This document shows positions 11,758 through 58,551 of a DNA stretch of 64,000 nucleotides, piece after piece (the stretch's first letter is position 1; every line of letters begins with the position of its first letter). Position numbers and translations under genes: made by a program. This DNA comes from Kiritimatiellia bacterium. GTDB lineage: Bacteria; Verrucomicrobiota; Kiritimatiellia; RFP12; UBA1067. A model generated the notes under the pieces. The model saw only the letters and a program-made list of their open reading frames with translations. It had not been told where the DNA came from and searched no databases. The DNA lies in assembly GCA_050949565.1 (NCBI GenBank), contig JBMNFY010000017.1:1728001-1792000 (forward strand), given 5' to 3'.

Positions 11758-13880
11758 CGTGTTTTCCTTTCAAACTTCACAAGGGGCACGATAACTTCTT
11801 CGATGGCTACACCGCCGTGACCTACGATGGCATCTCCCGGGTTCACGAATGCGTCGCGGCCACCGGCCACCAGGGGGAAATAATCTGCGGGCAACCCGAC
11901 CGGCTGCCACTCGTGGGCAAACGGGAAGGCCCCAGCCACCTGAGCGCGGAGTTCCGGCGTTGGATAAACACGAACCCGCTCGCCGCGAGTTTCGGCAATC
12001 ACACCTTCAGACGGGCGGCCTTTGCCGTCGCATTGGATGTTGCCGTGATCGGCCGTCAGCCAGACCTCATAGCCGTAATCCAGCAGTTGGCCGACCATCG
12101 CGGAAAGAAATCCTGCATGGCACCACTGCTTGATCTGGTTGTGCATCCCGGCCGAGCCGAGTTGCATGCCGTGCATGATCTTATCGACCTTGTCCACGAC
12201 CAGCCCCACCACCTTGGTCTTCCCGGGGTGGATTGCGGAGTCGAGGACGCCCGCAGCATCGCCGTCGCCAAGGCCGCGCTGGTAGGCGACATCCAGTCGG
12301 GACAGGCCATGGCCTTCCCAGAACTGTTTCCAGAGTTTCTCTTCGCTGTTGGTCGAGTTGATGGATGACGGGAAATAGAGCGGCGGCTTGCCCGAGAAGA
12401 TCGATTGCCGCGATACCGAGGTCAGCGTCGGAATCCAGGCGAAGGTCGCGGATTCGCGCATGACCAGATTGGCGTCCCGCTTTTGCAGAAGCTGGCGAAT
12501 GGTCACCCACTGGTCCAGGGCCAGGCCATCGACCACGATCAGCGCAGCACGGCTACTGCCAGAGTCCTCGATGTCCCGGGCCAGGCGGCGCGGCACATGG
12601 TGCAGCATGGCCGGATTGGTCGGCGGCAAGTTGATCAGACTGGAGTAGTTATGAACTAACCACTGATAAAACAAATCATTGATCTGATTCTGCACAGCCA
12701 AGAATTTTGAACCACGAATGGACACTAATTCACACGAATTTCCTTTTTCCGATTCGTGTTTATTCGTGTTCATTCGTGGTTCGCCATGAATCAGGGCTGA
12801 TAGCTCGGCCCATTTCAATGCAAAGGCGGTCCAGTCAGAGTAACGCGCTTCAGCAGTGGGCAGTTCCTTCTCGACAAGGCCAAACAAGCGAGAGATCCGT
12901 AGCTCGTCATCGTCCACGCCGGACGTGGCGATGCCGCTTCGAACCCAGGACCCGGCATCCACTTCAATGCCTTTGGCCTCGACTGGGGTGAGTTTTCCTT
13001 CCAGGAACAAGTTGTCGATATAGACCTTGATGTCCTGATGGTCGAACGGCAGGCGGTCAGGGCCGGGATAACGGAAGTGCGTAGTGCGAGGTGCGTAGTG
13101 CGTTTCAGGCTCTCGAACTTCGGTTCTCGCACTTCGCACTCCGCACTTCGCACTCAAAAACACCGGCCAGCGTTCCTGTAAAAAGGCGAAGAATGCCTCA
13201 TCGTCCGGAACGATTTCGGAGAGCGGCCAGGCTTTGAAATCAGGGGTGAGGGACGAGGGGCGAGGGGCGAGTTGAAGGGATTGGATCAGGCGATGGACCA
13301 GGATATCGGGGAGTCTGGTTTTTCCGTAGTGCAGACGGAGCAAGGCACGAAGCAGCTCCACCTCATTGGCGATCAGCTCAGCGGCGATGCCGAACACATG
13401 ACGGAGAATGAAATCCTTGGTGGCGTTGTCGCCCATGCGATCCGGCGGCGACTTGCGCTGGGCTTCAAAAAGCGAATCCAGCAAGCTCCGGTCGAGCTTC
13501 TCAATGACCGGATAGCTCAGGTTGGGAAAGAGATCCCCCAAGTTGAATGAAAGCTTGCGGCCCGCCTGGAGTAGGTCGTAAGGCAAGGATTCCAGCTCCG
13601 CATCCTGCAAGCGGAGGACTACCACCAGATCGGTGTGCTCACCCCGGTCCCATATCGAACGGTACTTTGACTCATAGGCGTATCTGAATTCGACCGGATC
13701 ACTGAACTCGATCAGGTCGAAGCCGCGCCCACGTAATTCAAGCGCCAGTTTCTCCTCGGTCAGCAGACAATCCGGGTCCGCGACCAAGGTCAGCTTGCTG
13801 ACGTTGGGCACAAAGTCGTTCAGGATGGCGTCTCGCCAGGAGGGAGAGTGCGAAGTGCGTTGTGCGGAGTGCGATGTCAT
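11754..13880 (-). CDS. pglZ: BREX-3 PglZ phosphatase-domain protein with in-frame repeat inserts
   Basis: IVVDGLALDQW, PTLTSVSRQ, TADHGN and HGGVAIEEVIVP motifs; ATG 13880 overlaps the upstream TGA. Confidence 0.92.
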   Translation of the reverse strand: MTSHSAQRTSHSPSWRDAILNDFVPNVSKLTLVADPDCLLTEEKLALELRGRGFDLIEFSDPVEFRYAYESKYRSIWDRGEHTDLVVVLRLQDAELESLPYDLLQAGRKLSFNLGDLFPNLSYPVIEKLDRSLLDSLFEAQRKSPPDRMGDNATKDFILRHVFGIAAELIANEVELLRALLRLHYGKTRLPDILVHRLIQSLQLAPRPSSLTPDFKAWPLSEIVPDDEAFFAFLQERWPVFLSAKCGVRSARTEVREPETHYAPRTTHFRYPGPDRLPFDHQDIKVYIDNLFLEGKLTPVEAKGIEVDAGSWVRSGIATSGVDDDELRISRLFGLVEKELPTAEARYSDWTAFALKWAELSALIHGEPRMNTNKHESEKGNSCELVSIRGSKFLAVQNQINDLFYQWLVHNYSSLINLPPTNPAMLHHVPRRLARDIEDSGSSRAALIVVDGLALDQWVTIRQLLQKRDANLVMRESATFAWIPTLTSVSRQSIFSGKPPLYFPSSINSTNSEEKLWKQFWEGHGLSRLDVAYQRGLGDGDAAGVLDSAIHPGKTKVVGLVVDKVDKIMHGMQLGSAGMHNQIKQWCHAGFLSAMVGQLLDYGYEVWLTADHGNIQCDGKGRPSEGVIAETRGERVRVYPTPELRAQVAGAFPFAHEWQPVGLPADYFPLVAGGRDAFVNPGDAIVGHGGVAIEEVIVPLVKFERKTR

Positions 13881-14251
13881 TCTCTTGTACTCCGATCCAG
13901 TGATGTACGAAGTCCGCCTATTGCCCGACTCAGGGTGATGCATTTTTCGCAGATATTGGAGCAATCGGATTCAGAAACATATCCCAGCGATTTTGCGAGC
14001 TGAATCTGGCTTCTTACTTCTGCGCATGATCCTCGGGCAATGGACAAAAACTGTTTAAACTCTTGTCTGCTGTATCGTTCGAAGCCCTCGGCGATGTTAG
14101 ACATCACTGAAACGGATGCACGCTGAATCTGATCCCGAAGCCCCCAATCTTTGGAAAACTCGCCATCCCTCGTTAGACCGTAAATTGTCACGGACAGGTC
14201 ATGGGCCATCTGCCAGATTTGCAAGTCCTCGAATCGTTCGACTTTGCTCAT
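13877..14251 (-). CDS. Four-helix-bundle protein (23S rRNA-IVP / Avd-like family)
   Basis: FEDLQIWQ...LRDQIQRASVSVMSNIAEG...FLSIARGSCAEVRSQ signature. Confidence 0.92.
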   Translation of the reverse strand: MSKVERFEDLQIWQMAHDLSVTIYGLTRDGEFSKDWGLRDQIQRASVSVMSNIAEGFERYSRQEFKQFLSIARGSCAEVRSQIQLAKSLGYVSESDCSNICEKCITLSRAIGGLRTSLDRSTRE

Positions 14252-17200
14252 GACCGCACCTCGCACTCTGCACTTCGCACTCGCAACGCGAGCAGCGGCC
14301 GGATCTCCGGCACGATCTGCCTTGCTGATTGCAGTTCATGCCGCCACTCGGATTCGTCCGCATCGCAACGGGACAACCTGAATTGCCGCACCTCCGGCAG
14401 TCCAACCCGTTCGATGGCCTTGCGGCGCGAGGCAAAGGAAACGATGCCGCGTTCCTCCTCGCGAGCCACAGAGGCGAGGTGCGCCTGCTGCAGGGCGTTG
14501 AACAGCTCCTGTCCGGCCTGTTCGGCAGCAATCTGCAAGCTCTCATGAGCGATGATGGATTCGTCCTGGTCAAGGGTGGCCTGCACCTGGGCTTCCGCTG
14601 TCTGCAGCGCATCCCAGATATGCCGGGCCGTGGGCAGAAACAGTTTGCCTTCCTCGCTCAAAAACACGCTGACATAGCCACGCCGCACCATGGGAATGCG
14701 CAGGAGCTGTGTCTTCTGGTGCGTCCCGGCCTGAAGGCGGATCTCAAAGAGTCCCCAGAGTCCGGAGATGCTGGCTGGCAGCCCGCTCACGCTTACGCAA
14801 GGCAATGGCTGGCCAGCCGCGATCTGCGGCAGGTTCAGGGCAAGCCCACGGACACGGCTGTTCGATAAATCGAAGTGCGAGGTGCGAAGTCCGGAGTGCG
14901 TAAAAGAACCTTTTTCAACGGTTCCATCTGACCAACTCAGTTCCCAGACATTTCCACCTCGCTCCTTGCGCAGTAATTTGGCTCCCGCCCTGCGCACTCC
15001 GCACCCCGCACTCGCATGACTGTTGAGGAACGAAACTGTCATGCGCTCCACCCAATGGGGCAGAGGATGGGAGCGCAGACGCTCAGCCGCCTGCACATCC
15101 GGCTCTTCGGAGATGCCATAGATGGCGGAGGCCTCGCGCACCTGCTGAATTTCATCGCGAAGCCGGGCCACCGTGTGATCGACGGAGCTTTCGATTCCGT
15201 CAGGATTGAGGATGGCAGAGGCGAACACATCCTCGAACAACTCACCGGCCTGGGCCGAGTCGAGCACGTCGCCGGTCTTGTCGATGCCGAACTCGTCGAA
15301 GATCACCGAGAGCTTCTGCTCCAGCACTTCGCGGACGCGGAACTCGACCGAATTCTCAAACACAAAATTAATTGCCCGCACTGTCTTGGGCTGCCCGATA
15401 CGGTCCACACGGCCGATTCGCTGTTCCAGCCGCATCGGGTTCCAGGGGATGTCGTAGTTGATGATGACGTGGGCGAACTGCAGGTTCAGACCCTCACCAC
15501 CCGCGTCGGTGGAAACCAGCACGCGGTGCGATTTGCGGAAGGCATCCTGGGCCTGATTGCGTTCCTCCATATCCATGGAGCCGTTCAGGGTGACCACCGA
15601 GATCCCCCGGGCTTCCAGAAACTCTTTTAGCATCTGCTGGGTCGGCACGAACTCGGTGAAGATCAGCACCTTCAAGTCCGGCTCGTTTTCCTCGGCCTGC
15701 AGCTCGTAGATCCACTCGATCAACGCCTCGGCCTTGGCGTCCGGTCCCGCTTGTTCGCAGCGAACCGCCGCATCGAGCAGGTGTTCAACCTCGGATTTTT
15801 CGTTTTCTATCGCATCAAGCTGTAACGCCAGCTCAAGCTGCTCTTGTCCGTCAAGATCTTCCCAATCCTCGGTTGAAAGGGACAAGGGGTCAGGGACGAG
15901 GGACGAGTCAGAATCTGCCAGTCTCGCCCCTAATCCCTCACCACTCGCCCCTAAAAAAGCAAGTCGTCGTTCCAGCGTGGTGCGGATCGCCCGGGTGCTT
16001 GAGACCACCAGGCGCTGCATCAGGATCATCAGGAAACCGATGTGGCGCTTCTTCTCGCGCAGGGCCTGGTTATAGCCCTCGCGCACATAGTCGGTCACCG
16101 CCTCGTAGAGAAGCTGCTGCAGGTGATGACGGCTCTCCCAGGCCACCGGGGCCATCTGCGTGCGCCGGGGTTTGAAGAGCGGCTTGCCGTCGGCATCGAT
16201 GGCCTTGCGCTTCTCGGTACGGATGACATACGGGGCCACCCGCTCGCGGGAGACGCTGTCCATATCCGGAAAGGCATCGTCATCCAGCAGGTTCATCAGG
16301 CGATGGAAGGCATCGGTCTTCCCCTGGTGGGGAGTCGCCGAAAGAAGCAGCACATAGGGCGCGGCTTCCGCCAGCCCTTTGCCGAGTTTGTAGCGGGCGA
16401 CCTGATCGGTGCTGCCACCCAGGCGGTGCGCTTCGTCCACCACCACCAGGTCCCAACCGGCGGTAATCAGATCCTCGAACCGGCTGCGGTTGTATTCGGC
16501 AACGCGCTCGGCGGTCCAGCCGCGCCGCTTGTCCATGGGTTTGACCGAATCGAGCGAAACAATCACTTGGTCAAAAAGCGACCAAGGATTGGTTCGCAAG
16601 TGCGGAGTATGGAGTGCGGAGTACGTTTTTTCTGAATCCGCACCTCGCACTTCGCACATCGCACCGGCAACGCGATTCAGCGTTGCCATGTCGTCGCCCA
16701 GCACGAGCTGGAACTGCTCGTTGAAGTGGGTCTGCATTTCCGCCACCCACTGGGTAGCGATGCCTTTGGGAGAGACGACCAGGATTCGCCGAACCAGCCC
16801 GCGCAGCTTGAGCTCGCGCATGACCAGACCGGCCTCGATGGTCTTGCCGAGACCCACCTCGTCGGCCAGCAGATAGCGCACACGGTCTCCGGAGATGGCC
16901 CGGGACAAGGCGTGGATCTGGTGCGGCAGCGGGATGACGTTGGACTCCATGGGAGCCAGCAATACATGGCCGTCGGTGGCGCTGGTGGAGCCTTCGAGCA
17001 CCTCGGCTACCTTGGCTGCGGCGGCCACATAGGCAATGTGATCAGTGGTTAGTGACGAGGGGCGAGAGGCGAGTGGAATCAGACCGGAAGCCGGGATTCG
17101 GACAACAGAATCAGAATTCGGCAACCAGACACGGCACACCGTCTGCCCCCACAAGGTCTGTTCTTCGATGACCTTGCAGGCGCTGTTATGAACGGTCGAA

Positions 17201-17295
17201 TAGCACCACGAATGAACACCAATGGACACCAATGATTTTCTGTCCGTGCCTGATTCGTGTTTATTAGTGTCCATTCGTGGTTCAATCCTCGCCAT
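14248..17295 (-). CDS. brxHII: BREX-3 BrxHII SNF2-like helicase with in-frame repeat inserts
   Basis: LADEVGLGKT, VDEAH, LSATP, STDAGGEGLNLQ and EQRIGRVDRIG motifs. Start approximate. Confidence 0.9.
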   Translation of the reverse strand: MARIEPRMDTNKHESGTDRKSLVSIGVHSWCYSTVHNSACKVIEEQTLWGQTVCRVWLPNSDSVVRIPASGLIPLASRPSSLTTDHIAYVAAAAKVAEVLEGSTSATDGHVLLAPMESNVIPLPHQIHALSRAISGDRVRYLLADEVGLGKTIEAGLVMRELKLRGLVRRILVVSPKGIATQWVAEMQTHFNEQFQLVLGDDMATLNRVAGAMCEVRGADSEKTYSALHTPHLRTNPWSLFDQVIVSLDSVKPMDKRRGWTAERVAEYNRSRFEDLITAGWDLVVVDEAHRLGGSTDQVARYKLGKGLAEAAPYVLLLSATPHQGKTDAFHRLMNLLDDDAFPDMDSVSRERVAPYVIRTEKRKAIDADGKPLFKPRRTQMAPVAWESRHHLQQLLYEAVTDYVREGYNQALREKKRHIGFLMILMQRLVVSSTRAIRTTLERRLAFLGASGEGLGARLADSDSSLVPDPLSLSTEDWEDLDGQEQLELALQLDAIENEKSEVEHLLDAAVRCEQAGPDAKAEALIEWIYELQAEENEPDLKVLIFTEFVPTQQMLKEFLEARGISVVTLNGSMDMEERNQAQDAFRKSHRVLVSTDAGGEGLNLQFAHVIINYDIPWNPMRLEQRIGRVDRIGQPKTVRAINFVFENSVEFRVREVLEQKLSVIFDEFGIDKTGDVLDSAQAGELFEDVFASAILNPDGIESSVDHTVARLRDEIQQVREASAIYGISEEPDVQAAERLRSHPLPHWVERMTVSFLNSHASAGCGVRRAGAKLLRKERGGNVWELSWSDGTVEKGSFTHSGLRTSHFDLSNSRVRGLALNLPQIAAGQPLPCVSVSGLPASISGLWGLFEIRLQAGTHQKTQLLRIPMVRRGYVSVFLSEEGKLFLPTARHIWDALQTAEAQVQATLDQDESIIAHESLQIAAEQAGQELFNALQQAHLASVAREEERGIVSFASRRKAIERVGLPEVRQFRLSRCDADESEWRHELQSARQIVPEIRPLLALRVRSAECEVRS

Positions 17296-18538
17296 GGGGT
17301 GGTTGCGCGGCAAAAATCGTCAGCATCAGCTCAGAATCATCAAGGAGCCTGTACACCGGCTTTCTACCCGACAGCTTCTCGCTTTCGGTGATGATGATCG
17401 GTACCCCCTCACCGCGCTTATCCATGATGAAATTCCGTTGACTGCCGATGGCATCTACATTCATAGGGCAACGAGCCAGCAATGAACTGATCAATTCGTT
17501 CCGTGCCGATTGGCGTTCTGAAATGCTATCAATGGTCATGGTGTTGGGGATCGCGCCGGGCGAGAAGATTTCCAGCCGATCAGAAAAGAGGTGCAGGCGA
17601 ATCTTGGAGCCGTAAATGGAGTAATCCCGATGGGCTACAGCGTTGACCACAGCCTCGAACACCGCATTCATGGAAAACTGGGGTGTTTCGATCCGATTGG
17701 GTGCTTTGATGGCAAAGACCCGCATGTTTCTCTCCACAAACTTGCAGGCGTCCCGAACCTGAACATCAAGCGGGCCAGTGATATCCTTGGCGTCCAGTTG
17801 ATAGGCGGCGTTGCGCTCGGTGCCCCGGTAGCAAACGGCCTGAATAAAAGCGCTGGAGATAAAAGCCTCCGGTGCGTCCGAGGCCATCAGAATACCGCTG
17901 ACTGTCGCCCGCATGGCGCCGTCTTCGTCCTTGGCAACCAGCTTCATCTTTTCGAGAAATTCCTGATCAGCCTTGGAGGAGATAACCGTCCGGAATTGGT
18001 TCCATAGCTTGGGATTCAGATCATTGACAGATGTGCCCGGCACTGTCTGTTCATCGAAGCGAATGAGTCGCGCCTGACTGCGTTGCTGGAATAACCGCGC
18101 CAAAACATCCGGTTTCATCTCGCGCTTGGAACTACCGAGGCGGCGGAAATAGCCATTAGGGCTTTTATGGACAAACAGACTGCGGGGCACGTCGATTCGC
18201 AGGATAGTTTTCTCATCACCCTGTTGATCGGGCACAAGGAGTTTGCGTATGACGCAATCCAAGGGAGGATCAATCGAGTCGTTGCAAATGGAACGTAGCC
18301 AGCCTTCAAGTATGTCAAGTTTATCCGACGGTATCCCTCGAATCTCTTTGGTCTTGTCATCAACCCCCAGAACAATGGTGCCGGAAGCCGTATTCGCCAT
18401 GGCCGCCAGTTCGTCTGCCATATCGTCCTTGTGGGGACCGGTGACTTTGTTACCGCTGAATTCCACTGCCTTGAGTTCAAGAACTGAGTCCTCGCCCAAG
18501 GCGATTTGTTTAAGCAGGTCGGAAATGTTTTCGTACAT
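17282..18538 (-). CDS. AlbA_2 (Schlafen-like) plus HATPase_c_4 domain protein
   Basis: GEDSVLELK, AMANTASGTIVLGVDD and EAVVNAVAHRDY motifs; AAGGAG RBS. Confidence 0.85.
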   Translation of the reverse strand: MYENISDLLKQIALGEDSVLELKAVEFSGNKVTGPHKDDMADELAAMANTASGTIVLGVDDKTKEIRGIPSDKLDILEGWLRSICNDSIDPPLDCVIRKLLVPDQQGDEKTILRIDVPRSLFVHKSPNGYFRRLGSSKREMKPDVLARLFQQRSQARLIRFDEQTVPGTSVNDLNPKLWNQFRTVISSKADQEFLEKMKLVAKDEDGAMRATVSGILMASDAPEAFISSAFIQAVCYRGTERNAAYQLDAKDITGPLDVQVRDACKFVERNMRVFAIKAPNRIETPQFSMNAVFEAVVNAVAHRDYSIYGSKIRLHLFSDRLEIFSPGAIPNTMTIDSISERQSARNELISSLLARCPMNVDAIGSQRNFIMDKRGEGVPIIITESEKLSGRKPVYRLLDDSELMLTIFAAQPPHGED

Positions 18539-18644
18539 TATGGGCACTCCTTTTCTAAGAAGAACCACGAATGAACACCAATAAACACTAATGATCTTTT
18601 GCATGGTCTTGATTCGTGTGTATTTGTGTCCATTCGTGGTTCCA

Positions 18645-19028
18645 TTAAAGCACCAACCTTTCCCATTCGAGTTTGGCACGTTTGAAGTTTAGAATAACGC
18701 CAACCTTCAGTCCGGTGATCTTTAAGTAATTGAGGATTTGACCGCGTTCCACATCGGTGATTCTTTCGATGGTCTTGGTATCAACCACAATCTGATCAAA
18801 AACAATCAAGTCAGGGATATACTCACCGACCTTGATCGACTTATAAATGACATCGAATCGAGGCTGCTGATGAAACGGGATATTCCGCAGCCCGAACTCC
18901 ACAACGAGCGCATTTTCATAAGGCTTTTCCAGCAGGCCATGTCCAAGCGTGTTCAACACCTCCATCGCACAGCCAACAATCTGAAAAACCTCCTCCTTCA
19001 AAAACAATTCGTGTTTATTCGTGTCCAT
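18645..19028 (-). CDS. GxxExxY protein
   Basis: LGHGLLEKPYENAL motif, PD-(D/E)xK-like PDLIVFDQIVVDTK and QILNYLK. Confidence 0.92.
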   Translation of the reverse strand: MDTNKHELFLKEEVFQIVGCAMEVLNTLGHGLLEKPYENALVVEFGLRNIPFHQQPRFDVIYKSIKVGEYIPDLIVFDQIVVDTKTIERITDVERGQILNYLKITGLKVGVILNFKRAKLEWERLVL

Positions 19029-19035
19029 TAGTGGT

Positions 19036-21880
19036 TCACTCCCCTCCCATTCTTGTTACCGCCTGGTCGTACCACATGAGCAGTTTGGGATCTTCTTCCA
19101 GGACGTTGTTGGGGATCTTGTCGGCCACGGCGATGATGACTGCGTAGTCGCGCTCCTGCCAGGCTTTCTTGAATCCGGCGCGGACAGCTTCCAGGCGGAA
19201 GACCTTGAGCTTTTTCTTGACCTCTTTGTATTCCTCGAACTCCTTGAGCAGCGCCTTCTCGCGCAGCTTCTCCAGGTCGCCTGCCTTGTTGGGGTCGGGC
19301 ACGTACCAGCGGTCGCGGGCCTTAGCGACCAAGGTCGGATCATCCTTGGGAAGATTGCGCAGCTCTTTCCAGTTGGTGGAAAGGTAGGCGTGGATCTGCT
19401 CGGGCACCGGGCCTTTGCCGTCGAATTTGATAAAATTTTGCTCTAGCAGCTCATCCAATTCGAGGAGCTTTTCTGTCTTTAGCCACCCACCAATTTCTTG
19501 CATAAATTGAGGTTTGAGTTCACCTGATGTTTGAGGCTTCTTAAGCAGTTGCTGCCTCATCCATTGGATGGCGGTATTTTCGTCAGTGATAAATAACTGT
19601 AGCTGTAGAACCTCACGTACAGTCATTCTCTTTCTATCGTATTCTGCAATTTGATCTGGTAGAAAATACATGCCATCACGCTCGGAGAAGCGCTGATTAA
19701 GGCCTTGATAGAACTCCGCTGCAGACAAAGGAACGGCCACCCCCCTTTGGACGTGAAATGCGACCATCCGGTCAAACAACAGAAAGTTTTGGCGCTCCGA
19801 AATGATTTCAACTTTCCCATCTTTGGAAACAAAAACAGGAAGCTGGTTGAGATGCGTTCTGATGAAATCCCAAACTACATCTTCGGTTCCCGCTCCAATC
19901 TCAAATTTCTTTTCTAGTCCATCTGTCGGTTTATATGCGGATATAACAAGGTCTTGATCAATGGCCCCAGCTCTATTTACTGCATTGAAAGACCGCTGCT
20001 GTTTATTGAGCACCCGAACATCTGCCACAACAAGCCCAGAAGACTCTATTGCCTGCTGTATCGCGCTCCAAACTGCATTCTGGCTGTTATGGAATTCGAC
20101 GGTGATCCATCTCCCCGGCTTTAGAACACGAGAGTAAGTTCTAAAGGCTCCTAACATCATATTGGAATAGAATGCTAAATCCTTCTTGTGGACATAGTTC
20201 AGAACGCAATCGCTATCGACAAAAGTCCTCGTCTTAAGCCACGCCTCCACAAACATGTTCAGCTCTGCATATTGCAATGATTCTCCAAAAGGCGGATCTG
20301 TAAATATGTAGTCAATTGAACTATCTGGGTAATTCCTGAGATCGACAACACTTTGGGTGGATACGGTCGCAGCCCGGTGAGTTTCTACTGAAAGAGACTT
20401 CAGCTTTTTTATCTTCCTCTTGAGAACATCAAATACATTTCGCTCAAGGTGAAGAGAGGGCGTAAAAAGAGTGCCCGAAACGCCACCGCCTCCGCCGAAA
20501 TAGCCTTGTTTTCTCGAAATATAGTTATTAATCGCGGTTAAGCAGAATCTGAAAAAGGCCGTTCTTCTGTGTGAAGAGAGCGTCTTCCCCCACAAGTATC
20601 CATAAACAAATAGAGATCGCTTTGTATACATATGAGCGACATGCGATAGCCCAGAACCATTTATGAGTTTGTTGGTCTGCCGACCTGGGAAAAATTCATC
20701 TGAAGGAATGCTTGGCCAGTGACGTCCTTCAAACCTTTGATCAAATTCTTTTCGTTCCTCGGGCGTAACCGAGAACGTCTTTCTTGCCGTTCCCTGCTTT
20801 ATTGTCTGCTCAACTAGAGCAAACTTGGGAGTGCTTACCATTTTTCCAAGCACGGGATCGAACTCAGATGTAAATGGCCTTTCCAATTTTACCGCGCCAG
20901 AAGATTTCGACGCTGCTTTTCCTACTATCGTTCCGCAATCAGGGCATGGGAAAGATCCTTCCATCTTTCCATCTTTTAATGCGGCTTCCCAGAAAATGAA
21001 CTCATGCGAACAGTTAGGGCAAAGGAAAACATCTGACCAGACGGCACTAAGCACGGTACCTTTTTGCTGACCCTGATAGAGCCATTTGAGTTCTTTTTCG
21101 GCACTCTCAATCACCTTTAATGCTTCCATGGCAAAAGAAGAGAGGGAGGAAAGGTCTGAGTAATTACTCGAAATAAACGTCGCAGCAGGTGAGAGGTCAT
21201 TTAAGAAGGCTTTCCTCTCCCCTATGGTAGAGAACGGTACCCATACCTTTTTCCCTTCGCTATCAATCTCTTCCTGCATAATCGAGCCATCGGGCTTGAT
21301 TTGATAACCGAGGGACGATATTTCGTTTTTGTCGCCACACATCTGCGCCGCCACGCCGGTCATGCCTGTTCCACAGAAGCCGTCAAACACAATATCCCCC
21401 GGTTGGGTGTAGTGGAGGATGTAACGCATGATGGCCTTGTGCGGCACCTTGGTGTGATAGGAGTGCGCGTTGTAAATCGGGTCGTTCTTCCCCTCGCTGA
21501 CATCGGCGGCAAAAGGCTCTCTATGATAGGGGCGAGGGGTGAGGGGCGAGGGGTGAGCGCCTTCTTTCTCGTCCCTCGTCCCTAATCCCTCGTCCCTGAT
21601 TTTTTCCGCTTCCCATAAGCGGATAAAATCGGCAATCCACGGGTTCGGGCAGGCGGTGTAGTACGGCGGATCGCTCAGCTTGAGGATGTCTTCATCTCTC
21701 ACCGATGGGAAAGCCTTCGATCTTGCGGAACTCCGGGTCCTGCAGCTTCTTGCGCAGCTCCTCGGTAAAGTGGGCGCGGCGGGCCTCGTCGTTCTCGAAG
21801 GTCATGCCGAGGCAAGTCACCGGGCCGGAGGGCTTCTGCGGCTCTTCAAGCAGCGAGTCGAACAAACTGGTTTCTTTCAT
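19036..21880 (-). CDS. pglXI: BREX-3 PglXI DNA methyltransferase, split by a 1-nt frameshift near 21700
   Basis: SDPPYYTACPNP, YHTKVPH, DGFCGTGMTG and FTDPPFG motifs. The N-terminal piece (MKETSLF...EGFPIG) lies in ORF 21692-21922 and continues in another frame. Confidence 0.85.
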
Positions 21881-22237
21881 CTTCACAATCCTTTTGAACC
21901 ACGAATGGACACGAATCCACACGAATAATTTTTAACCACGGAATACACGGAAAGCACGGAAGGGGCACTTGCTATACACGCTTTTATGCGCGGGCGCATA
22001 GATGGGCGCATATTTTCACGCGCCGCGCGGATTTTACGCGCGGGCTCATACCATTTTATGCTTGCAACGCCCGTTTTATGCTCGGTGAGCATATTTTCGC
22101 CCGACGAGCATAAATATGAGCGAATACGCGCGCCGCGCGCAAAATACGAGCGATCTACACACGATCCTATACACGCATGCGTAGAAGTTATGAGCCATTT
22201 ATGAGCTGGCTCATAACTTATGAGCGGGGCGCATAAA

Positions 22238-23908
22238 TTATGGGTTAAAGTCATAATGAGACCCTCTTCGTTCACCATGTTTGAAAATTTTTCCTTCGTT
22301 CGCCAGTCGAGTCAGCAGTTTTGCGGCTTGGTCTTTTGTCAGACGGCACAGGTCCATGACATCCGCTCGTTTTATGCTGCCGTGTTTGTCGATATAGCTA
22401 AGCACCATCTGCTCCTGCTGGATGGGTGCAAACCCGGCCTGGCGGATGTACTCTGATTTTTTTCCTGCTTTACGGTACAGGGCGGCACTGAGGGTATAGG
22501 TCCGTCCCCTGCCGGTGCCGTGGGGTTCCAGAAATCCGGTTTCCACGAGTTTTTCCAGTGTCGCCCGAACACTGGCCTCCGGTTTTTGGACCGATGGGGC
22601 GAGGTCACCGGTGGTCAAGCGGCGCTCCTCACGCAGGCGGGAGAGGATGATCAGGGAGTCAATGGGCATGTTACCCAGCTTGTCCTCTTGTTCGACGACC
22701 ATCTTGAGAAAATCGAGATCGGCGGCAGCATTGACCATCTGCATGGAAACCGTAAACTCATTGGACATGGAGTAATCCGGTGCCGGTCGACCGTAGCGGA
22801 GCATGCCTTCATAGATGCGGTCAATCCCGCGCCCTGTACGCTCGGCCAGGCCGATCCGCTTGATCACGTCAGCAAGTAGCGGATTACGGGAACGGGGGTC
22901 TGCAACGAGCAGGTTATCCAGGGTAACGCCTTCCACAAATCCGCCAGGATTGCTGATCGAAAGGCCATCGCCTGTGATCTTGACGTGCACGGCTCCCAAA
23001 CGGCTGAAGTCGCGGTGTACCAGGGCGTTAACCAATGCTTCGCGGAAAGCGCGTCGATCATAGTTGGGAACCGGCACCCGGAAGAGGCCGACCTGTATCT
23101 CTTCTTCCTCGACTCGTGCCTTGAAGAGAAGCTCAACTTCCTCAAAGGTTTCCAGCAGTGGTTTGCGGAAGAACTCATTCACCCTGACGTCTGTAGCTTG
23201 CAGGACCTGGAAGGCGACCTCGTAGGCGGGAAGATGTTGTCGCAACAGACTTTCGGTTCCCAGCAACAGCAATCCGGCCACGGTTGGCCGCCTGATGCCG
23301 TTCCCTTCCCGACAGAGCCCCAGAGCGCCATCCAGTTCGTCATCGGCCAGCGCCAGCAGGGATTGTTCGCCGCCGTATTTCTTAATGGCGTTACGAATGC
23401 GCAGCCGTTGCAGTGGGTCGAGTTGGCTTGCTTCCACCTCCTCAAGCATCATGGCAGAGGGATCGACAAGCCCCATTGACGACTGGCGCTGGATAAACTC
23501 ATGGGGATAGAAAGGAACCGCTTCCGGTGTACCGTCGAGCTTGAGGCGCCTTCGGACCAGAAGGCCATCGGAGGTTGAAACCAATTGCCGGGATTTGGGC
23601 ACGGAGATACGGGCGATGGATTTGCCCTGCAACTCACACCGCTCGATGCGAACAGATATGGCGGGATTGGTTTTGTTGGCGATCAGCGAAGGAATGCCCG
23701 ACACATTCAGATGGTTGGCATGCAAGCCGGTAACCGAGCCATCATCCTCCACACCAAGCAACAGGTTGCCGCCATCGGTATTGGCCAAAGAAACGACCAC
23801 GGCCACCAGGTCGCGATCAGGCAGGCACTTCAGGTCGCTCTTGAATTCCAGCGACAAGCTTTCGCCCTGCTGGATCAGCTTATCAATTTCGTGTCCATTC
23901 GTGTCCAT
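22238..23908 (-). CDS. AlbA_2 + HATPase_c_4 + wHTH protein
   Basis: GESLSLEFKS, SLANTDGG, REALVNALVHRDF and GRGIDRI motifs with C-terminal HTHs; start MDTNGHE lies inside a repeat arm. Confidence 0.85.
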   Translation of the reverse strand: MDTNGHEIDKLIQQGESLSLEFKSDLKCLPDRDLVAVVVSLANTDGGNLLLGVEDDGSVTGLHANHLNVSGIPSLIANKTNPAISVRIERCELQGKSIARISVPKSRQLVSTSDGLLVRRRLKLDGTPEAVPFYPHEFIQRQSSMGLVDPSAMMLEEVEASQLDPLQRLRIRNAIKKYGGEQSLLALADDELDGALGLCREGNGIRRPTVAGLLLLGTESLLRQHLPAYEVAFQVLQATDVRVNEFFRKPLLETFEEVELLFKARVEEEEIQVGLFRVPVPNYDRRAFREALVNALVHRDFSRLGAVHVKITGDGLSISNPGGFVEGVTLDNLLVADPRSRNPLLADVIKRIGLAERTGRGIDRIYEGMLRYGRPAPDYSMSNEFTVSMQMVNAAADLDFLKMVVEQEDKLGNMPIDSLIILSRLREERRLTTGDLAPSVQKPEASVRATLEKLVETGFLEPHGTGRGRTYTLSAALYRKAGKKSEYIRQAGFAPIQQEQMVLSYIDKHGSIKRADVMDLCRLTKDQAAKLLTRLANEGKIFKHGERRGSHYDFNP

Positions 23909-23915
23909 TCGTGGT

Positions 23916-26900
23916 TCAGCCTTCCATGACGATCCGCACCTTGGCCGGGTCCTTGCCCTTGGTGAGCTGATCGATGTACTCCTCAAAGCGTTTCTTCATC
24001 TCTGCCGGGGTGGCCGGGCCGTCGGTGACCTGCAGGGCCTGTTGCAGCTCCTGCGCCTTGACGGTGACCTTGACCAGGCCGGAGAGCACTTCCTTCAAGG
24101 CGTGGACAAAGTTGCTGTCCAGCGGCACCGGCAGTTCCTTCGACCTGATGAAGGCTTCCAGCGGCTCGCGGTCATCGATCTTCAGCAGATCCATGTTGGC
24201 CTGGGTGATCGGGTCCTCCAGGTTGCTGAGCAACGCCTTGGTCCAGTTTTCCAGCATCCGGTCGAGTTCGTCGTCCAGTGCGTTAAGAATTGCGGCGGCG
24301 TTGCTCAAGTGCGTGGTGCGTGGTGCGTGGTGCGAGGTTTCCGCACTTCGCACTCCGTACTCCGCACTCATTTCGGTCGCAGGCCGAAATTGGCAATGCG
24401 GGCAGATGGGCGAGGCATCGAGGTTTTGTTCGGTCAGGGCGAAGCAGCTCTTCAGTCCGGCCAGGCGGTTCTGGTAATCGGTGAGCTGCTGCCGGGGCAT
24501 CAGGTCGATACCAGCCAGCTTGAGCAGGGTTTGCAGGCGCTGGTCGTTGAGCAGTCCTGCCTTGCGCTTGTCGTCGTTCACGCCCAGCCGGGCGCGCGCG
24601 TGGAGGGAGATGTATTGGTTGATGTAATCGCGTTTGAGCTTTTTCAGCTCTTCGCCGACTTCGGACGATACTCGCGCGAGATCTGAGGACTGAGTGCTGA
24701 GGACTGAGGTTAGAGCGTCCAGAACTTCCTTGCGAGTTTTCTTGACCTGCTCAACCCAGACATCCAATCCCTGTGCTCCAAACTCGCCCCTCGCCCCTGA
24801 TCCCTCGCCCCTGCTTGCAGAGGCTTCCGCCGTAGCAAGCCAAGCTGCTGTCGGGCTGTGGTCCATGATGAACTCGCGCAGGGCGTCCAGCTCATCCAGG
24901 GCCTTCACGGCCTTTTCGTGGGCCAGCACTTCGGGAGCGCTGTAGCGGAAGTTTTTCAGTTTACCCGGAGTAGAGTACGCTTGCAGGCTTTCAAAGAAAG
25001 CCTTCGCGTCCTCCAGTGCGTGGTGCGTTGTGCGCAGTGCGCCATCTTCACCCCGCACCTCGCACCCCGCACTTCGCACTAAATCTAGACCCCAGAAGGA
25101 GAGCCCTTCGCGCAGGGTCTGCTGGGTCATGACGATGCGTTTGACGATCTTGCCCACCGCCTGTTGCAGGTTCTGCACAGGCTCGTCCTTGCCCTGGGTG
25201 ACGAGCTGGGCCATGCCCGGCGTCATGCCGAGCAGTTCGAACAGCGCTTTGAGCGCGGGCAGGTTCCATTCCTTGGGCTGCTCCAGGTGCTTGAAGCGGA
25301 CCAGCTCGTCCATGCCGGTCGCGGCAAGCTGCTGCAGCCCGGTGGCGTCAAACTTTCTTGCCCGGAATGGCGAGCACGATGTCGCCGGAATAGACCAGCG
25401 CAGCCACCAGACCGCTCACCCATTCGGGTTCCAGACGCGAACCGCCGGGGTTCATGTATTCCAGCCCGTGGTCGTCCTGGATGATCTCGCTGCGGTTGAC
25501 TACCTGGCCGTGCCCCTTGGCCTTGACGGTATCGAGAATGAACTTGGTGTACTTCGACTTGTAGGGGTCGATCTTCTCGCCGTCGAGCAGCTCCAGGGCG
25601 TCCAGCACGGCGGTGGCTTGTTTTGTCAGGGGCGAGGGACGAGAGGCGAGAGATGAGTTGGCCAGATTGGCCATTCCTCGTAAGGCATCTTGGGCCGCTT
25701 GCGCTCTGTTGGCGGCAGTGATCAGGACCGAGAAGAACGGGTAGTCCGGGGCCTGGTTCTCGAAGTTCGGTGCCAGGCAGACACCGGCGATGGTGTTCAC
25801 CAAGTCGCGGAAGTTGATAGTCTCGTGAGGCGACAGGCCCGACAGGTCGCGGATGGATTTGCCCTTGGCCCATTCGGTCATGGACTTGGCACGGCCCTGA
25901 TAGGTGACCTCGAAGGCATCGCTCATGTGCTTCTGCAGCCACTGGACCAGCTTCTTCAGGAAGCCGTTGGCCTTCGATTCATAGGTGGCCTTGGCATGGC
26001 CCGATGAGGTGGCTGCAAGATCCAGTGCGGCCGCATAGCTTTTCAGAGCTGTCTGGAATTCTTCTGATGGAGAGCCACTAATGGACGCGAATGAACACGC
26101 ATCATTTTTTATTTGTGTCAATCCGTGTTTATCTGTGGTTCTCAAGTTCAGACGGAAGAAAACTTCATCGGAACTTTTTTCATCTTTGAACCTTGGGCAA
26201 TCAAATGGCGGAAGAAAATAGAGGTAAAAGTCCCGCTGCGGCACGGCGGTGGAACGCTCGTTCGGTGCCCCGAAAAAGAGGTAGCCGGAGCGGGCTGCCT
26301 TGTGCTCCTGCCAGACCAGTTCGTGCTGCCAGATTTTGTAGCCGGTCACATAGGTGGCGTCCTGGCATTCCATGACCCGCTTGAGCGCCTCGTAATAGAA
26401 GCGGTCGAGCTGAGCCTGGCCCAGGCTGTCGGCCCGCGTCCTTACTTTTTCGTCGTAATCGATATCTTTCGAGACATCCAGGTAGAATTGGCCACTGAGT
26501 CGCCCGCGATCATCAATCTCTGTTGCGGAAATAAATTGCCCGCTGACGGCTTGGCTGATCAGGCGGATAGCCGTTTCAACTTCACCACGTAAGTCTTCTG
26601 CGCTGTCATCGCCACCGAGCTCGGCAATCAATGGATCAAACAGGCACAACTGGTCACGAAGCGCTTCAGCGGTTAGTCCATTTGGCGAGGATAAACTTCC
26701 CACGGTAAGCCGATGAACGCTAAGCCCACGAACAATTCGCAAGGCAAATTTCTTGTTTTTCGCCTTTGGATAGTTGGAAATCACTAAATTTTGCAACGTG
26801 TTGCTGCAATCAATGACCTGCTTTATATCAGGTAATGTTCGATAGGCGGCATTGGTTGAGAGTACATCCCAGTAGCTGTCGAAGGCGATCAGGCCGGGTT

Positions 26901-27906
26901 CGTCCTGCGGCACGTCCTTGCCCAAAATGCCTTTCATGCCCATGGACAAGGTCTTGAGCACCTCGCGCTTTTCCACCACGGTGACCCGCTCGAAGGTGTC
27001 GATGTAATCGGGATGCACCGGGAAGAGCCGGACAAACTCGTCCATGCGCTCATTGAGCCCGCCGTAGTATTTGGCAAAAGGCATCAGGTAGTCGCGGATC
27101 TTGGCCTGTTGCTCGGTGGTCTTCTTGAGCAGGCGCTCGGCCACGACGAATTTCACGTCGCTGCGGGCGATAAGGATCTGCTCGAAGCGGTCCTTCACCC
27201 GGCGGATGCTGTCGGCGACAAAGGCGAAGCGCGGGCTGTCGAAAATGGCTTCCTGGACACCGGCCATGAAGCGGAAGCGAAGGTCCTTGCAGACCTCGCC
27301 GACCTCGCGGAGGAAGTTGAGGTCGAGGATCAGCTCCTGGTCCTTGCGGGTGCGCAGGTAGTCGAGCAGCTCATCGACCACCAGCAAGAGACCATGCTCG
27401 GGGAAGACCTCGCCGAACTTGGCCATCATGTCTTCGAAGGCCCGCTTGTGGCTGGTAATGGTCCCGGCTTCGGGGAACACATACTCCACGCCGAGTTTTT
27501 CGAGGTGCTCTTCCAGTTCGGCCACCAGGATGTCGCGCAGGGACATGGTGGTGGCTCCGATCTCGGTACGGATGACCTTGAACCGACCTGCGATCTGAGA
27601 GGCTGCATCGCGGACACCGGCGTGGTTCAGCCCTTCCAGCAGGGAGGCATCTGCGGCAATACAGGAAACCACCGACATCAAATGCGATTTACCGGTGCCG
27701 TAGTTACCGACGACCAGCAGCCCCTTGTTATCGACCGGGTGGTCGAACTGCATCTGAGGAATGACAAGCTGCGTGAGTCGTTCGGCCATTTCATCTGAAA
27801 TGACATAGGTGTTCACCAGGTGCTGCGCGGCGTTCGATTTGTCCGCGTCACGCAACTGAACGACCGACTCAATCGGGTCGAATTGGATAAGGTCTCCGTA
27901 TTTCAT
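23916..27906 (-). CDS. brxC: BREX-3 BrxC/PglY (DUF6079-like) ATPase, split by a 1-nt frameshift near 25352
   Basis: Walker [10 protein letters not shown] and VVDELLDYL. ORFs 25348-27906 and 23916-25313 are contiguous once one base is removed at ...PGKK/FDATG... Confidence 0.85.
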
Positions 27907-28304
27907 GGCAACTCCTTCGTCGTTGCAGGGGCGAGGGACGAGGGTTTAGAGGCGAGTTTGGCCATCAACCCGTTGGTCATTTTGTTGATTTCTACTTGTA
28001 AACTGAGAATAAGGCCGAGCTGGTCAGTTGAGAGATACCCGAGTCGATGGGCAATCAGTAATTGGGTCTCAACCTCTGCCAGTGAACCCTTTGAGATTGA
28101 CAAGAACCGATGGAATTCTTTTGTTGAGTTTCTTGCATGGCCTTCAGCAATGTTTGATGGAATCGCAACAACGGCTCGTCGAAGCTGATTCGTCAATCCA
28201 TATAACTCTTCCGTAGGAAAAGTTCTGGTTGCTTGATAAACCATTTCAACCAAATCCAACGCTTTCTGCCAAACAATCAAATCCTTGTAACTCTGCACGC
28301 TCAT
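27903..28304 (-). CDS. Four-helix-bundle protein (23S rRNA-IVP / Avd-like family), second copy
   Basis: [11 protein letters not shown]...[21 protein letters not shown]...[10 protein letters not shown] signature. Confidence 0.93.
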
Positions 28305-28795
28305 ATCTCGTCCCTCACCCCTAACTCCTCGCCTCTCATATCAACAATCAGCGCATCGACCGAGTCATAGCTGCGGTACTCGGGATGGCCGGTTTCGGCG
28401 TACAAAAGCCTCCCGGAATTCATGATTCCGTTCCACGAAGCCACCACGGCCCGATTTCTCGAAATGGACTGCAGCAGGCGCAAGGGGTCCTGCTGGAGAT
28501 CCTTGTCGAAGAGGATCTCGAGATTATCCAGCACCACCGGTGCTTGAGCCTGGTCCGCGATCTGATCGAGGATGCCCGGCAACCGAAGCGACCGCTGCTT
28601 TGCCGTCAGCTCAAGCAGTTCGCCTGAAAGCGCCAGATTGACGTTGACGACAGATGAGCCGAATTCCTCGGCAATATCCCGAAGAACGCCGGTCTTGCCG
28701 GAACCGGTCTCACCCACCAGCAACACCAGACGGTGATACAAGCCTTCGGCTGCCTGGAGGGATCGTTTTATCTTGTCGTGAATCGGCTCGGCCAT
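28301..28795 (-). CDS. brxF: BREX-3 BrxF P-loop protein
   Basis: LVGETGSGKT, LDNLEILFD...DPLRLL and YAETGHPEY motifs; first gene of the BREX-3 order. Confidence 0.88.
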   Translation of the reverse strand: MAEPIHDKIKRSLQAAEGLYHRLVLLVGETGSGKTGVLRDIAEEFGSSVVNVNLALSGELLELTAKQRSLRLPGILDQIADQAQAPVVLDNLEILFDKDLQQDPLRLLQSISRNRAVVASWNGIMNSGRLLYAETGHPEYRSYDSVDALIVDMRGEELGVRDEI

Positions 28796-33056: not shown

Positions 33057-33128
33057 TGGTTTCAAGGTTTCTGGTTTCAAGGTTTCATCCAAATCGGGAT
33101 CGGGATCGCTATCGGGATCGGGATCGAT
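33057..33128. repeat. Short tandem repeats GGTTTCA/GGTTTCT (7-mer) and ATCGGG (6-mer); duplicated at 36792-36863
   Basis: Seen directly between the convergent dsbD and xylB genes. Confidence 0.75.
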
Positions 33129-36738: not shown

Positions 36739-36968
36739 CCCGCGCGGTTTTGTTTTAGCCTAAAAAGAGCAGTTGAATCTTCAACTCTCATTGGTTTCAA
36801 GGTTTCTGGTTTCAAGGTTTCATCCAAATCGGGATCGGGATCGCTATCGGGATCGGGATCGATTGTTTAACCGCCGCCGGATAGAAGGCCGGTGCATAGG
36901 GCACCGGCAGTGCTCGTAGTACCGGCAGTAACGGGAAACCCTCCGCAATTCCCAACCCCAACTGCCTA

Positions 36969-58116: not shown

Positions 58117-58369
58117 GATTTAGGAGTTAGCATTTAGGATTTAGGAGTTAGCGCTGCTCGGGTTTTTCATCCACAGATGGCACAGATTAGCACAGATTTT
58201 TTGGGGGCAGCCGGAACTGCCGTTCCTGCGGGGACTGCGGGCGAGGGCGGCGTGGAACGCCGCCAAATGACAGCCTGGTGCGGAGCAGCACCCGCAGCAC
58301 CCGCAGTGCCGGAAGCCCGGCGGCGTTCGCGCCGCCCACAAAACTCCTAACTCCTAAATCCTAAATCCT
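58117..58369. repeat. MITE-like element with heptamer inverted ends (TTAGGAG / CTCCTAA)
   Basis: GATTTAGGAGTTAG...TTTAGGATTTAGGAGTTAG on the left and AACTCCTAACTCCTAAATCCTAAATCCT on the right. Confidence 0.75.
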
Positions 58370-58551
58370 CCTTCCAGAGGGCGTTACTTTCCTGTCGCCA
58401 CGGGTCGGGGGCGTGTGATAAGCTAGCGTTTGTTTCTTGAGGTCAGGGGTTTTCAATTTGACAATTTTCCGAAATATGTCAAACTGCGCGACCTCAAACG
58501 ACGCCGGAGGGTGGCTTTGGTTGATTGGATGGCGTCAAGAGGAGCAGTAGC

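Follow-up and report, generated by a model that had tools for sequence, protein, structure and literature searches.

A 64,000-nt stretch of a Kiritimatiellia bacterium genome (contig JBMNFY010000017.1, positions 1,728,001 to 1,792,000, referred to as the window) carries a type 3 bacteriophage exclusion (BREX) operon in which small genes are enclosed by inverted arrays of short repeats and gene-less copies of these arrays lie inside the BREX reading frames. The stem-enclosed genes and in-frame hairpins of this operon are real and unusual. Profile matches of the window's open reading frames (ORFs) placed the operon, with all genes and repeat elements described for it below, on the minus strand in the order brxF-like AAA gene (28301-28795, with copies of 92-99% identity in many loci), 4HB2, brxC (DUF6079, 23916-27906), AlbA1, pglX (N6_N4 methyltransferase, 19036-21883), GxxExxY, AlbA2, brxHII (SNF2/DrmD-like helicase, 14248-17313, the homologue match starting at residue 36, about 17208), 4HB1, pglZ (BREX-3 phosphatase, 11754-13964) and an ORF of 251 residues (orf251). 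PglZ is of the BREX-3 type, as it matched NF033449 (BREX_PglZ_3) at 1.2e-267 with 889.5 bits against a cut-off of 250, and it also matched PF08665.

Three repeat families bracket two four-helix genes (PF05635), one GxxExxY gene (PF13366) and two AlbA_2 genes. Each arm is an array of short tandem units of 7 to 10 nt with a conserved core, the unit being GTGCGNN in family A and GGGRYGA-like in family B, while family C is a 10-mer array starting GAACCACGAAT. The 4HB1 unit (13846-14282) is composed of family A arms at 13846-13874 and 14255-14282 and a gene at 13877-14266 (PF05635, 5.8e-37), and the 4HB2 unit (27903-28322) of family B arms at 27927-27942 and 28307-28322 and a gene at 27903-28304 (PF05635, 3.5e-39); both genes also match TIGR02436. 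The GxxExxY unit (18562-19037) belongs to family C and contains an upstream arm (19000-19037), the gene (18645-19028) and a downstream hairpin (18562-18642), with the start codon and first residues of the protein (MDTNKHE) encoded by the unit's own upstream arm. A preliminary description of this DNA had assigned inverted arms of family A to 4HB1, B to 4HB2 and C to GxxExxY, exactly as found here, and had viewed each full unit as an ORF within a stem, which is matched by predicted minimum-energy RNA folds with 29 (4HB1), 35 (4HB2) and 39 (GxxExxY) long-range closing pairs. Its statement that the island lacks a transposase or integrase also held: family profiles detected neither these nor a reverse transcriptase among the 20 ORFs scanned in 2954-29734.

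Arms of family C surround AlbA1 as well, and GxxExxY together with AlbA2. The AlbA1 cargo gene (22238-23986, SLFN_AlbA_2 and HATPase_c_4 domains) has its left arm at 23884-23917 and copies of 95-96% identity in the orthologous loci L014 and L067. Two adjoining right-hand arms occupy 21896-21963 between AlbA1 and pglX, one of family C (21896-21926) and one of a related 9-mer family (21935-21963), and in the predicted fold, pairing between the two ends of the AlbA1 unit amounts to -61 kcal/mol. The 9-mer arm is of a CCGTG type that resembles the unit flanking a GxxExxY gene elsewhere in the host genome (C17:1382786). AlbA2 (17282-18679, same domains) is present in L023 at 93% identity and absent from most loci. 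For annotation, such arms lengthen or create reading frames and displace apparent start codons; one example is an ORF of 131 residues at 21883-22278, which crosses the arms separating AlbA1 from pglX. Pfam gives no match for this ORF, and it is unlikely to be a real gene.

Both four-helix cassettes preserve the tight coupling of their neighbors. In the four empty alleles compared, brxHII and pglZ overlap by ATGA. The 4HB1 cassette replaces this junction and rebuilds the stop/start overlap at both of its ends, so that one arm is read as the tail of brxHII (RSAECEVRS) and the other as a new head of pglZ (MTSHSAQRTSHSP); from the sequence, the real pglZ start is probably the ATG provided by the cassette at about 13880. 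The same brxHII-4HB1-pglZ junction with the same arms was found in L104, another genome of the class, at 91% identity. Likewise, the 4HB2 gene overlaps brxF and brxC by 4 nt, one overlap per end, again with ATGA.

The small proteins belong to two orphan families, of which PF05635 is described as functionally uncharacterised in the accessible part of a 2024 preprint and PF13366 is listed as 'Unknown' in the accessible part of PMC3424549. 4HB2 matches the pentameric four-helix protein XCC0516 (2GSC, 3.7e-29), and models of Avd, the accessory protein of diversity-generating retroelements (DGRs), match the four-helix proteins weakly and below cut-off (26 bits versus 80). GxxExxY was identified by PF13366 at 8.1e-36 and by TIGR04256; no sequence relative was detected among solved structures. 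Eight GxxExxY sequences, in which paralogues share about 30% identity, have invariant E34, D73 and K85 and either D or E at position 83. The predicted structure is a minimal PD-(D/E)XK fold (predicted local distance difference test score 92.5), for which Foldseek returned lambda exonuclease, Cas4 and Hjc with E-values of 6e-4 to 4e-2 and modest template modeling scores of about 0.45-0.58. Judged by these residues and this model, GxxExxY looks like an active nuclease. The fixed DNA anatomy around both families offers concrete substrates for binding, cleavage and mobility assays.

Gene-less elements and alleles of the operon

Thirteen gene-less arms or hairpins are internal to the pglZ, brxHII, pglX and brxC frames and one further hairpin lies 5' of brxHII, in agreement with the roughly one dozen recurrences reported beforehand; the peptides SAECEVRS, RTTHHA, SRPSSL and EPRMDTNKHE are all present in the translations. 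All 14 are short and devoid of an ORF and together represent the three families, and the 13 internal elements sit in continuous frames that keep the host ORF open. PglZ contains a family C hairpin (12709-12782, peptide EPRMNTNKHES..SCELVSIRGS, -35.6 kcal/mol, z -7.6) that is common to L023 and absent in L009, L014, L032 and L042, a family A hairpin (13074-13156, peptide SAKCGVRSARTEV..APRTTH, z -5.4) and a single family B arm (13242-13275, peptide PRPSSLT) with an identical allele in L014. In brxHII, family A hairpins are found at 14870-15014 (92-nt loop, z -5.3) and 16604-16666 (z -3.3), together with a family B hairpin at 15885-15953 (peptide GASGEGLGARLAD..SSLVPDPLS), which is common to L014 and keeps native RLA(D/E) residues in its loop, and a single family B arm at 17051-17077 (peptide ASRPSSLTT), where the native loop is replaced. 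The additional family C hairpin between AlbA2 and brxHII (17200-17286, z -5.6) is located in the long open frame upstream of the start used by homologues. The only pglX element is a family B hairpin (21525-21591, z -4.1), at whose site L023 has a family C hairpin. Five elements lie in brxC: family A hairpins at 24306-24370 (z -5.3) and 25014-25081 (z -6.1, with a family C hairpin at that site in L014 and L023), family B arms at 24759-24805 (identical allele in L014) and 25628-25665, and a degenerate family C hairpin at 26074-26145, a clean 72-nt insertion common to L023 with a weak fold (z -2.0).

The predicted RNA hairpins have energies of -28 to -66 kcal/mol. Nine of ten reached z values of at most -3.26, with 0 of 200 shuffles as stable, and the tenth was the degenerate brxC hairpin (z -1.99). 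Family A stems are 5-bp helices split by 2x2 mismatches: in the window hairpins at 13074-13156, 24306-24370 and 25014-25081 and eight hairpins in L023, L057, L063, L067 and L104, the 5-nt cores pair at 214 of 230 positions and the 2-nt spacers at only 12 of 92, below the 25% expected by chance. The spacers of these hairpins are purines in one arm and mostly TG, TA or CA in the other.

To define the boundaries of the inserts, as had been suggested, each BREX protein was aligned with eight orthologous operons taken from 78 loci that were collected by a PglX search. Four operons (L032, L036, L009 and L042) with 83-86% protein identity are empty and contain none of the elements, while L014, L023, L067 and L104 share some of them at identical sites. 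The presence and absence of elements among orthologous operons shows gain or loss at the DNA level, in line with the mobile system that the earlier description had offered as one option. An assembly artefact was considered and rejected, as the elements recur in the independent assemblies L014, L023, L067 and L104 and in contigs of public sequencing runs.

The arrays could also have arisen by microsatellite-like expansion in place, in variable linkers and junctions and without any mobility, with the small genes merely situated in repeat-prone spots. Native residues seem to be kept in some loops, the number of units differs between copies, and the empty alleles contain a unit-like GTGCGG at two of five family A sites, as a seed for such expansion might; these two matches are within chance (about 0.1, an estimate). 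Slippage alone is however insufficient to place three families with the same cores at 13 sites with inverted partners 5-90 nt apart, and the insertion in brxC at 26074-26145 is clean, 72 nt long and equipped with terminal inverted repeats. Expansion in place is therefore the least probable of the explanations considered here and can hardly account for the operon.

While brxC, the pglX methylase and the brxHII helicase are all present, brxC and pglX each carry a 1-nt frameshift in the assembly. The preliminary description had held that the frames remain unbroken, which is correct for the hairpins and incorrect for the operon: both frameshifts lie away from any hairpin, and the operon is thus not fully open in this assembly. 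The pglX frameshift near 21700 detaches the first ~61 residues (MKETSLFDS...FPIG, region 21690-21883); all six homologues examined are continuous at this site, and in contigs of two runs one base is missing at 21699/21700. In brxC, a single surplus base near 25357, within GGGCAAGAAAG (window 25340-25360), divides the gene into two frames; the four homologues examined are uninterrupted there, and the base is missing from contigs of four public runs, albeit on alleles of ~97% identity. As the contigs without extra bases are such ~97% alleles of other samples, they do not separate an assembly error from a real frameshift.

The pglX module differs from its surroundings. Its G+C content (window 19500-21500) is 44-50% versus 55-63% in the rest of the operon, and in four metagenome or metatranscriptome runs its depth is far lower. 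Moreover, pglX is 96% identical to that of L001 and only 53-55% identical to those of loci whose brxF and orf251 are 97-99% identical to the ones described here; by its sequence, it looks like a swapped specificity module. It is conceivable that the repeats serve as recombination linkers, where homology or nuclease-made breaks promote the exchange of modules, notably pglX, between BREX-3 operons. The mosaic structure of the operon and the composition and depth of pglX are consistent with this idea, as is the clustering of small genes on both sides of pglX in 13 loci. In addition, 104 of 192 ends of matches with at least 92% identity fall within 40 nt of an array versus 17.5% expected, a count that is in part trivial, since any match necessarily breaks off where its partner is without the insert, and inflated by related, non-independent loci. 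Set against this, module boundaries are gene boundaries anyway and many mosaic operons have no arrays, and we consider a primary role as linkers quite unlikely.

Several observations concern the neighborhood of the operon. A SIR2_2 gene and a HerA (DUF87) gene form a pair next to it (8089-10940), accompanied by an ORF with a nuclease domain of the pPIWI-associated kind (6837-8000), which makes the region a defense island. On the other side, two arrays are repeated identically 3735 nt apart (31343-31377 and 35078-35112; 33091-33128 and 36826-36863), which suggests, by sequence comparison, a ~3.7 kb tandem duplication of a DsbD-like gene region; the array at 31343-31377 encodes the N-terminus MDMIDKIDMID of an ORF there.

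Repeat families, their genomic distribution and RNA

The preliminary description had spoken of matched systems in which each small gene accompanies its own repeats, and the pairing was followed across genomes. Among 45 four-helix genes, the arms share repeated 6-mers in all eight pairs with at least 85% protein identity, in 39% of pairs at 70-85% identity, in 16% at 60-70% and in at most 6% below that, and 0 of 2000 permutations of a Mantel test reached the observed correlation of arm units with protein identity. Gene-less arrays were commoner in BREX-3 loci with a small gene (12 loci versus 43; one-sided p = 0.004, the loci not being independent). Arm units thus track the protein clade, as proposed. 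The other half of the claim was weakened: homologous operons that carry the inserts without the small gene, which had been named in advance as grounds for rejection, were found in L067, L063, L023 and L057. These have family A hairpins, and the best 4HB1 relatives in the respective genomes are 41-53% identical, none with GTGCG arms (assembled genomes whose completeness is not known). The family is accordingly not restricted to genomes with a cognate gene, within the same limit of completeness.

These data bear on the proposal made from the sequence beforehand, namely that each small protein binds its own family in trans and that the in-frame hairpins are its working sites in the operon, for binding or for processing. 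A resident gene flanked by the same unit exists for all three families of the window and for both families of L014, the arm 6-mers track protein identity as described, the cores are conserved and the spacers are not, and the four-helix protein is related to Avd, if only by a match below cut-off. However, family A hairpins without a cognate gene in operon or assembled genome, a resident four-helix gene in L063 whose unit differs from that of its nine hairpin arms, and the fact that linkage alone predicts co-variation make working sites of this kind very unlikely.

Short-unit arrays are a general feature of the host genome, in which 2452 were counted (572 in one Mb, compared to 68 after shuffling). 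Those units that flank resident small genes are met again some 20 to 200 times, on as many as 19 contigs, and the dispersed arrays are mostly single arms that are packed side by side between genes. Across the genome, a first search for arrays paired in inverted orientation gave no more than 158 pairs, whose gaps did not clearly peak at gene size. Host arrays are depleted from coding sequence: 73% of the bases belong to long open frames, yet these hold only 258 of 930 period-7 and 74 of 391 period-8 arrays, as opposed to 23 of 23 arrays in the BREX operon. The commonest heptamer family of the host, GGAGTTA/GGATTTA, has about 200 arrays genome-wide and occurs in the window at 2911-2948, 58117-58153 and 58337-58375, the latter two forming an inverted pair about 180 nt apart. 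Strict family A arrays number eight in the operon and none elsewhere in the 4.66 Mb genome, strict family B arrays two and none, and family C is represented elsewhere by three single arms. This confinement of families A and B indicates that the operon brought its own repeat families along, in line with its mosaic nature, its cross-phylum relatives and its occurrence in digester and bioreactor metagenomes. It also means that there is no sign of current activity in this host.

The association of small genes with repeat arms extends well beyond the operon. When the threshold for inverted repeat-built flanks was set at the 99th percentile of random controls (equal or higher scores counting), 13 of the 15 PF05635/PF13366 genes of this genome are so flanked, each small gene with its own unit; of the two exceptions, one has direct arrays on both sides and the other is just below the threshold. 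The threshold was reached by 22 of 29 four-helix PF05635 loci (28 of them belonging to other genomes within the phylum; of 30 loci retrieved, one was discarded for its short flanks) and by 24 of 27 GxxExxY PF13366 loci from other genomes (two of 29 dropped). GxxExxY arms commonly start with (A)ACCRC, and the units after it have an RCRC core and a length of 8 to 10 nt. PF05635 was detected in 98 of 151 and PF13366 in 50 of 101 genomes of this phylum. An exclusive association with defense was rejected, as other small genes are found in glycosyltransferase, PilM, MoxR-VWA, type I restriction-modification (R-M) and aminotransferase/radical-SAM clusters, and by their gene context the cassettes favor multi-gene operons in general, beyond defense systems. 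Two regions of the same genome, L111 (C17:389000-406000) and L109 (C20:14000-31000), each contain four-helix gene pairs about 4 kb apart, set between genes of a MoxR-DUF58-VWA operon and of a glycosyltransferase cluster. At L114:6155-7835 (C17:1382155-1383835), a GxxExxY gene lies between a 224-residue Methylase_S ORF and a 208-residue ORF without Pfam match, and possibly divides a type I hsdS gene in two. The available portion of PMC3936711 already mentions four-helix genes within cas loci; no published link of PF05635 or GxxExxY genes to tandem-repeat arms or in-frame hairpins was found in searches of the literature outside subscription journals and supplements.

The stems might act on RNA, as RNase III or other processing sites or as stabilizers, through which the long BREX transcript is cut or tuned and the mRNA of the small genes set free, with the in-frame hairpins as extra processing or pausing sites. 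The hairpin stabilities and the 29-39 closing pairs around each small gene are compatible with this, as are the location of the GxxExxY start codon inside its own arm and the fact that arms remain complementary while the unit sequence differs between paralogues; furthermore, RNase III excises the homologous intervening sequence (IVS) of Coxiella (PMC4990558, as far as the excerpted text reaches). Excision was examined with three RNA-library runs and one DNA run, using contigs of mixed communities, which cannot show RNA ends. Of 15 listed skips of an element or cassette, none was marked as a clean cut and four were also seen in the DNA run, namely three in-frame elements and the 4HB2 cassette, whose absence (joint 27907>28344) was detected in the DNA run and in two RNA libraries. 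RNA-library contigs span unprocessed units at 13638-14652, 17167-19056 and 27881-28373, which is weak evidence since contigs do not show ends. Joints at hairpin sites mostly have other letters between the two sides, which marks them as alternative alleles; we take them to be alleles of co-resident operons and not products of processing. Five joints occurred in RNA libraries only (13070>13164, 17038>17117, 24680>24813, 17190>19046 and 21739>23938), but these were not counted as evidence, as three have sides of at most 30 letters, 24680>24813 has 63, and the communities contain several related operons. Excision or splicing of the hairpins from RNA, and with it the earlier suggestion of an RNA-processing system, is thus unsupported. 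Cutting the 4HB1 stem would moreover remove the brxHII stop codon and the pglZ start, and most BREX-3 operons work without any such element. Stems interrupted every 5 bp by 2x2 mismatches, as in family A, are poor RNase III substrates. Taken together, a function of the stems in RNA is unlikely.

Proposed colonization of the operon and comparison with known systems

With moderate confidence, we favor the view that the operon was colonized by IVS-type foldback cassettes and their ORF-less derivatives, which act and are inherited at the DNA level. A full unit would be a small gene (four-helix, GxxExxY PD-(D/E)XK nuclease, or AlbA_2 as cargo) between two inverted arms. [quoted passage not shown] As BREX-3 genes abut or overlap with almost no intergenic space, only copies that rebuild a junction or stay in frame persist; the persisting copies would accordingly be those that restore a stop/start overlap (both four-helix cassettes, with ATGA) or occupy tolerant loops in frame. 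Horizontal transfer and recombination would then move the elements, together with the gene segments in which they sit, among the BREX-3 operons of many phyla, and such spread with BREX modules would account for the confinement of families A and B to the operon in this host. For the way in which the elements move and the small proteins act on the arms, we infer that the GxxExxY nuclease may cut at or near its own arms and drive copying by homing or foldback transposition, and that the Avd-like four-helix protein may bind the repeat arms as an accessory. The stems would fold in mRNA too, being tolerated rather than required by BREX.

A number of observations weigh against colonization by such cassettes. 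Target-site duplications were found at 0 of 11 sites aligned base by base, and most of these sites show replacement of an 18-40 nt native loop instead of a clean insertion. Native residues (RLAD/E, EVRE) seem to be kept inside loops at three sites, which is not predicted by a unitary mobile hairpin. Three sites (brxC residue 337, residue 81 of the C-terminal part of brxC, and residue 35 of the listed pglX ORF) hold different families in different operons; they may represent the few tolerant loops, or the replacement could be targeted. The mismatched spacers of family A point to a sequence-specific constraint on the units rather than to an inverted repeat that was simply copied. No transposase or recombinase was detected among the scanned ORFs, the four-helix protein lacks a catalytic motif, and the co-variation of units and proteins is confounded by linkage. 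Families A and B have not spread in this host even though three intact small genes are present. Finally, the operons of L067, L063, L023 and L057 carry family A hairpins and no 4HB1-type gene, so that hairpins persist without the gene.

A broader proposal, which we put forward tentatively and consider doubtful, is that the four-helix and GxxExxY genes are residents of widespread, unrecognized prokaryotic replicators, each of which maintains and spreads its own arm family, much as REPIN/RAYT systems do (see below) but with other enzymes. If true, a single framework would cover rRNA IVSs, the four-helix genes in cas, R-M and BREX operons and intergenic heptamer arrays of the STRR (short tandemly repeated repetitive sequence) and TAACTGA type, and replicator elements would write new peptide loops into proteins. 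Apart from this proposal, the architecture described here links rRNA intervening sequences, small genes in cas loci and abundant heptamer arrays. On the favored view, horizontally mobile defense operons carry their own repeat parasites across phyla, which alter the loops of BrxC, PglX, BrxHII and PglZ and may mark points of module exchange.

The closest known relatives of the full units are the 23S rRNA IVSs. In the accessible text of PMC4990558, the Coxiella IVS contains an S23p ORF, preceded by a variable number of tandem GACAGAT heptamers, and a terminal stem of 28 bp at which RNase III cuts. The IVSs of Coxiella and Leptospira, as covered by these excerpts, share with the units described here a PF05635 ORF, terminal inverted repeats that form a stem and heptamers beside the ORF, and they are regarded as selfish elements without a transposase; the common anatomy of four-helix ORF, terminal stem and tandem heptamers agrees with the earlier notion of an mRNA analogue of an rRNA IVS. 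In contrast to IVSs, which reside in helix 25 or 45 of 23S rRNA, the units described here lie in a protein operon, between brxHII and pglZ and between brxF and brxC. Their arms consist wholly of tandem units and are translated as extensions of neighboring genes with rebuilt stop/start overlaps, and ORF-less copies occur in reading frames.

The in-frame elements resemble RPEs, short palindromes that occur in frame in unrelated protein genes and leave the gene open (review PMC10969869, available portion), and intragenic MITEs, in that they add peptide segments to a gene that is kept open. Unlike in RPEs, each arm is built from repeated units of 7 to 10 nt, one operon houses three families, these also bracket small genes, many copies replace a native loop, and the host genes form a horizontally mobile defense operon. 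Unlike MITEs, the elements show no target-site duplication at the 11 sites, and the related full units carry 4HB, GxxExxY or AlbA_2 genes and not a transposase. The arrays of the host genome are further reminiscent of the Beggiatoaceae TAACTGA and cyanobacterial STRR repeats, which are described in PMC4679880 as abundant, mostly intergenic heptamer direct repeats of unknown function that are shared between distant lineages; the accessible text of that source has no mention of intervening-sequence or four-helix genes. Both comprise many short, mostly intergenic heptamer arrays, but the arrays described here are tied to PF05635 and PF13366 genes and form inverted pairs.

Avd of DGRs differs from the four-helix proteins of the operon in that no reverse transcriptase is adjacent among the 20 ORFs scanned and the Avd models remain below cut-off. 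Free-standing homing endonuclease genes are small nuclease ORFs between conserved genes that cause no polar damage and vary among close relatives. The GxxExxY gene is similar as a small nuclease ORF between conserved genes that is present or absent among relatives; the units differ from homing genes by their inverted tandem arms, which to our knowledge are not a feature of known homing genes. In REPIN/RAYT systems (hairpin-forming repetitive extragenic palindromes and their associated tyrosine transposases), a single-copy gene is flanked by its own hairpin repeats, gene-less copies are dispersed, and gene and repeat are paired in a family-specific manner. The same arrangement of a gene with its own flanking repeats and dispersed gene-less copies is found here, for host-native families across the genome and for families A to C within the operon. 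The differences are that Pfam and NCBIfam give PF05635 and PF13366 only and not an IS200/IS605-like Y1 transposase, that the repeats are tandem-unit arrays, and that hairpins persist in four genomes in which no cognate gene was found, which contradicts a need of the gene for their persistence. By analogy, the full units may be viewed as an IVS variant living in protein operons and the gene-less copies as akin to RPE-type elements, the whole resembling a REPIN/RAYT system built with other proteins.

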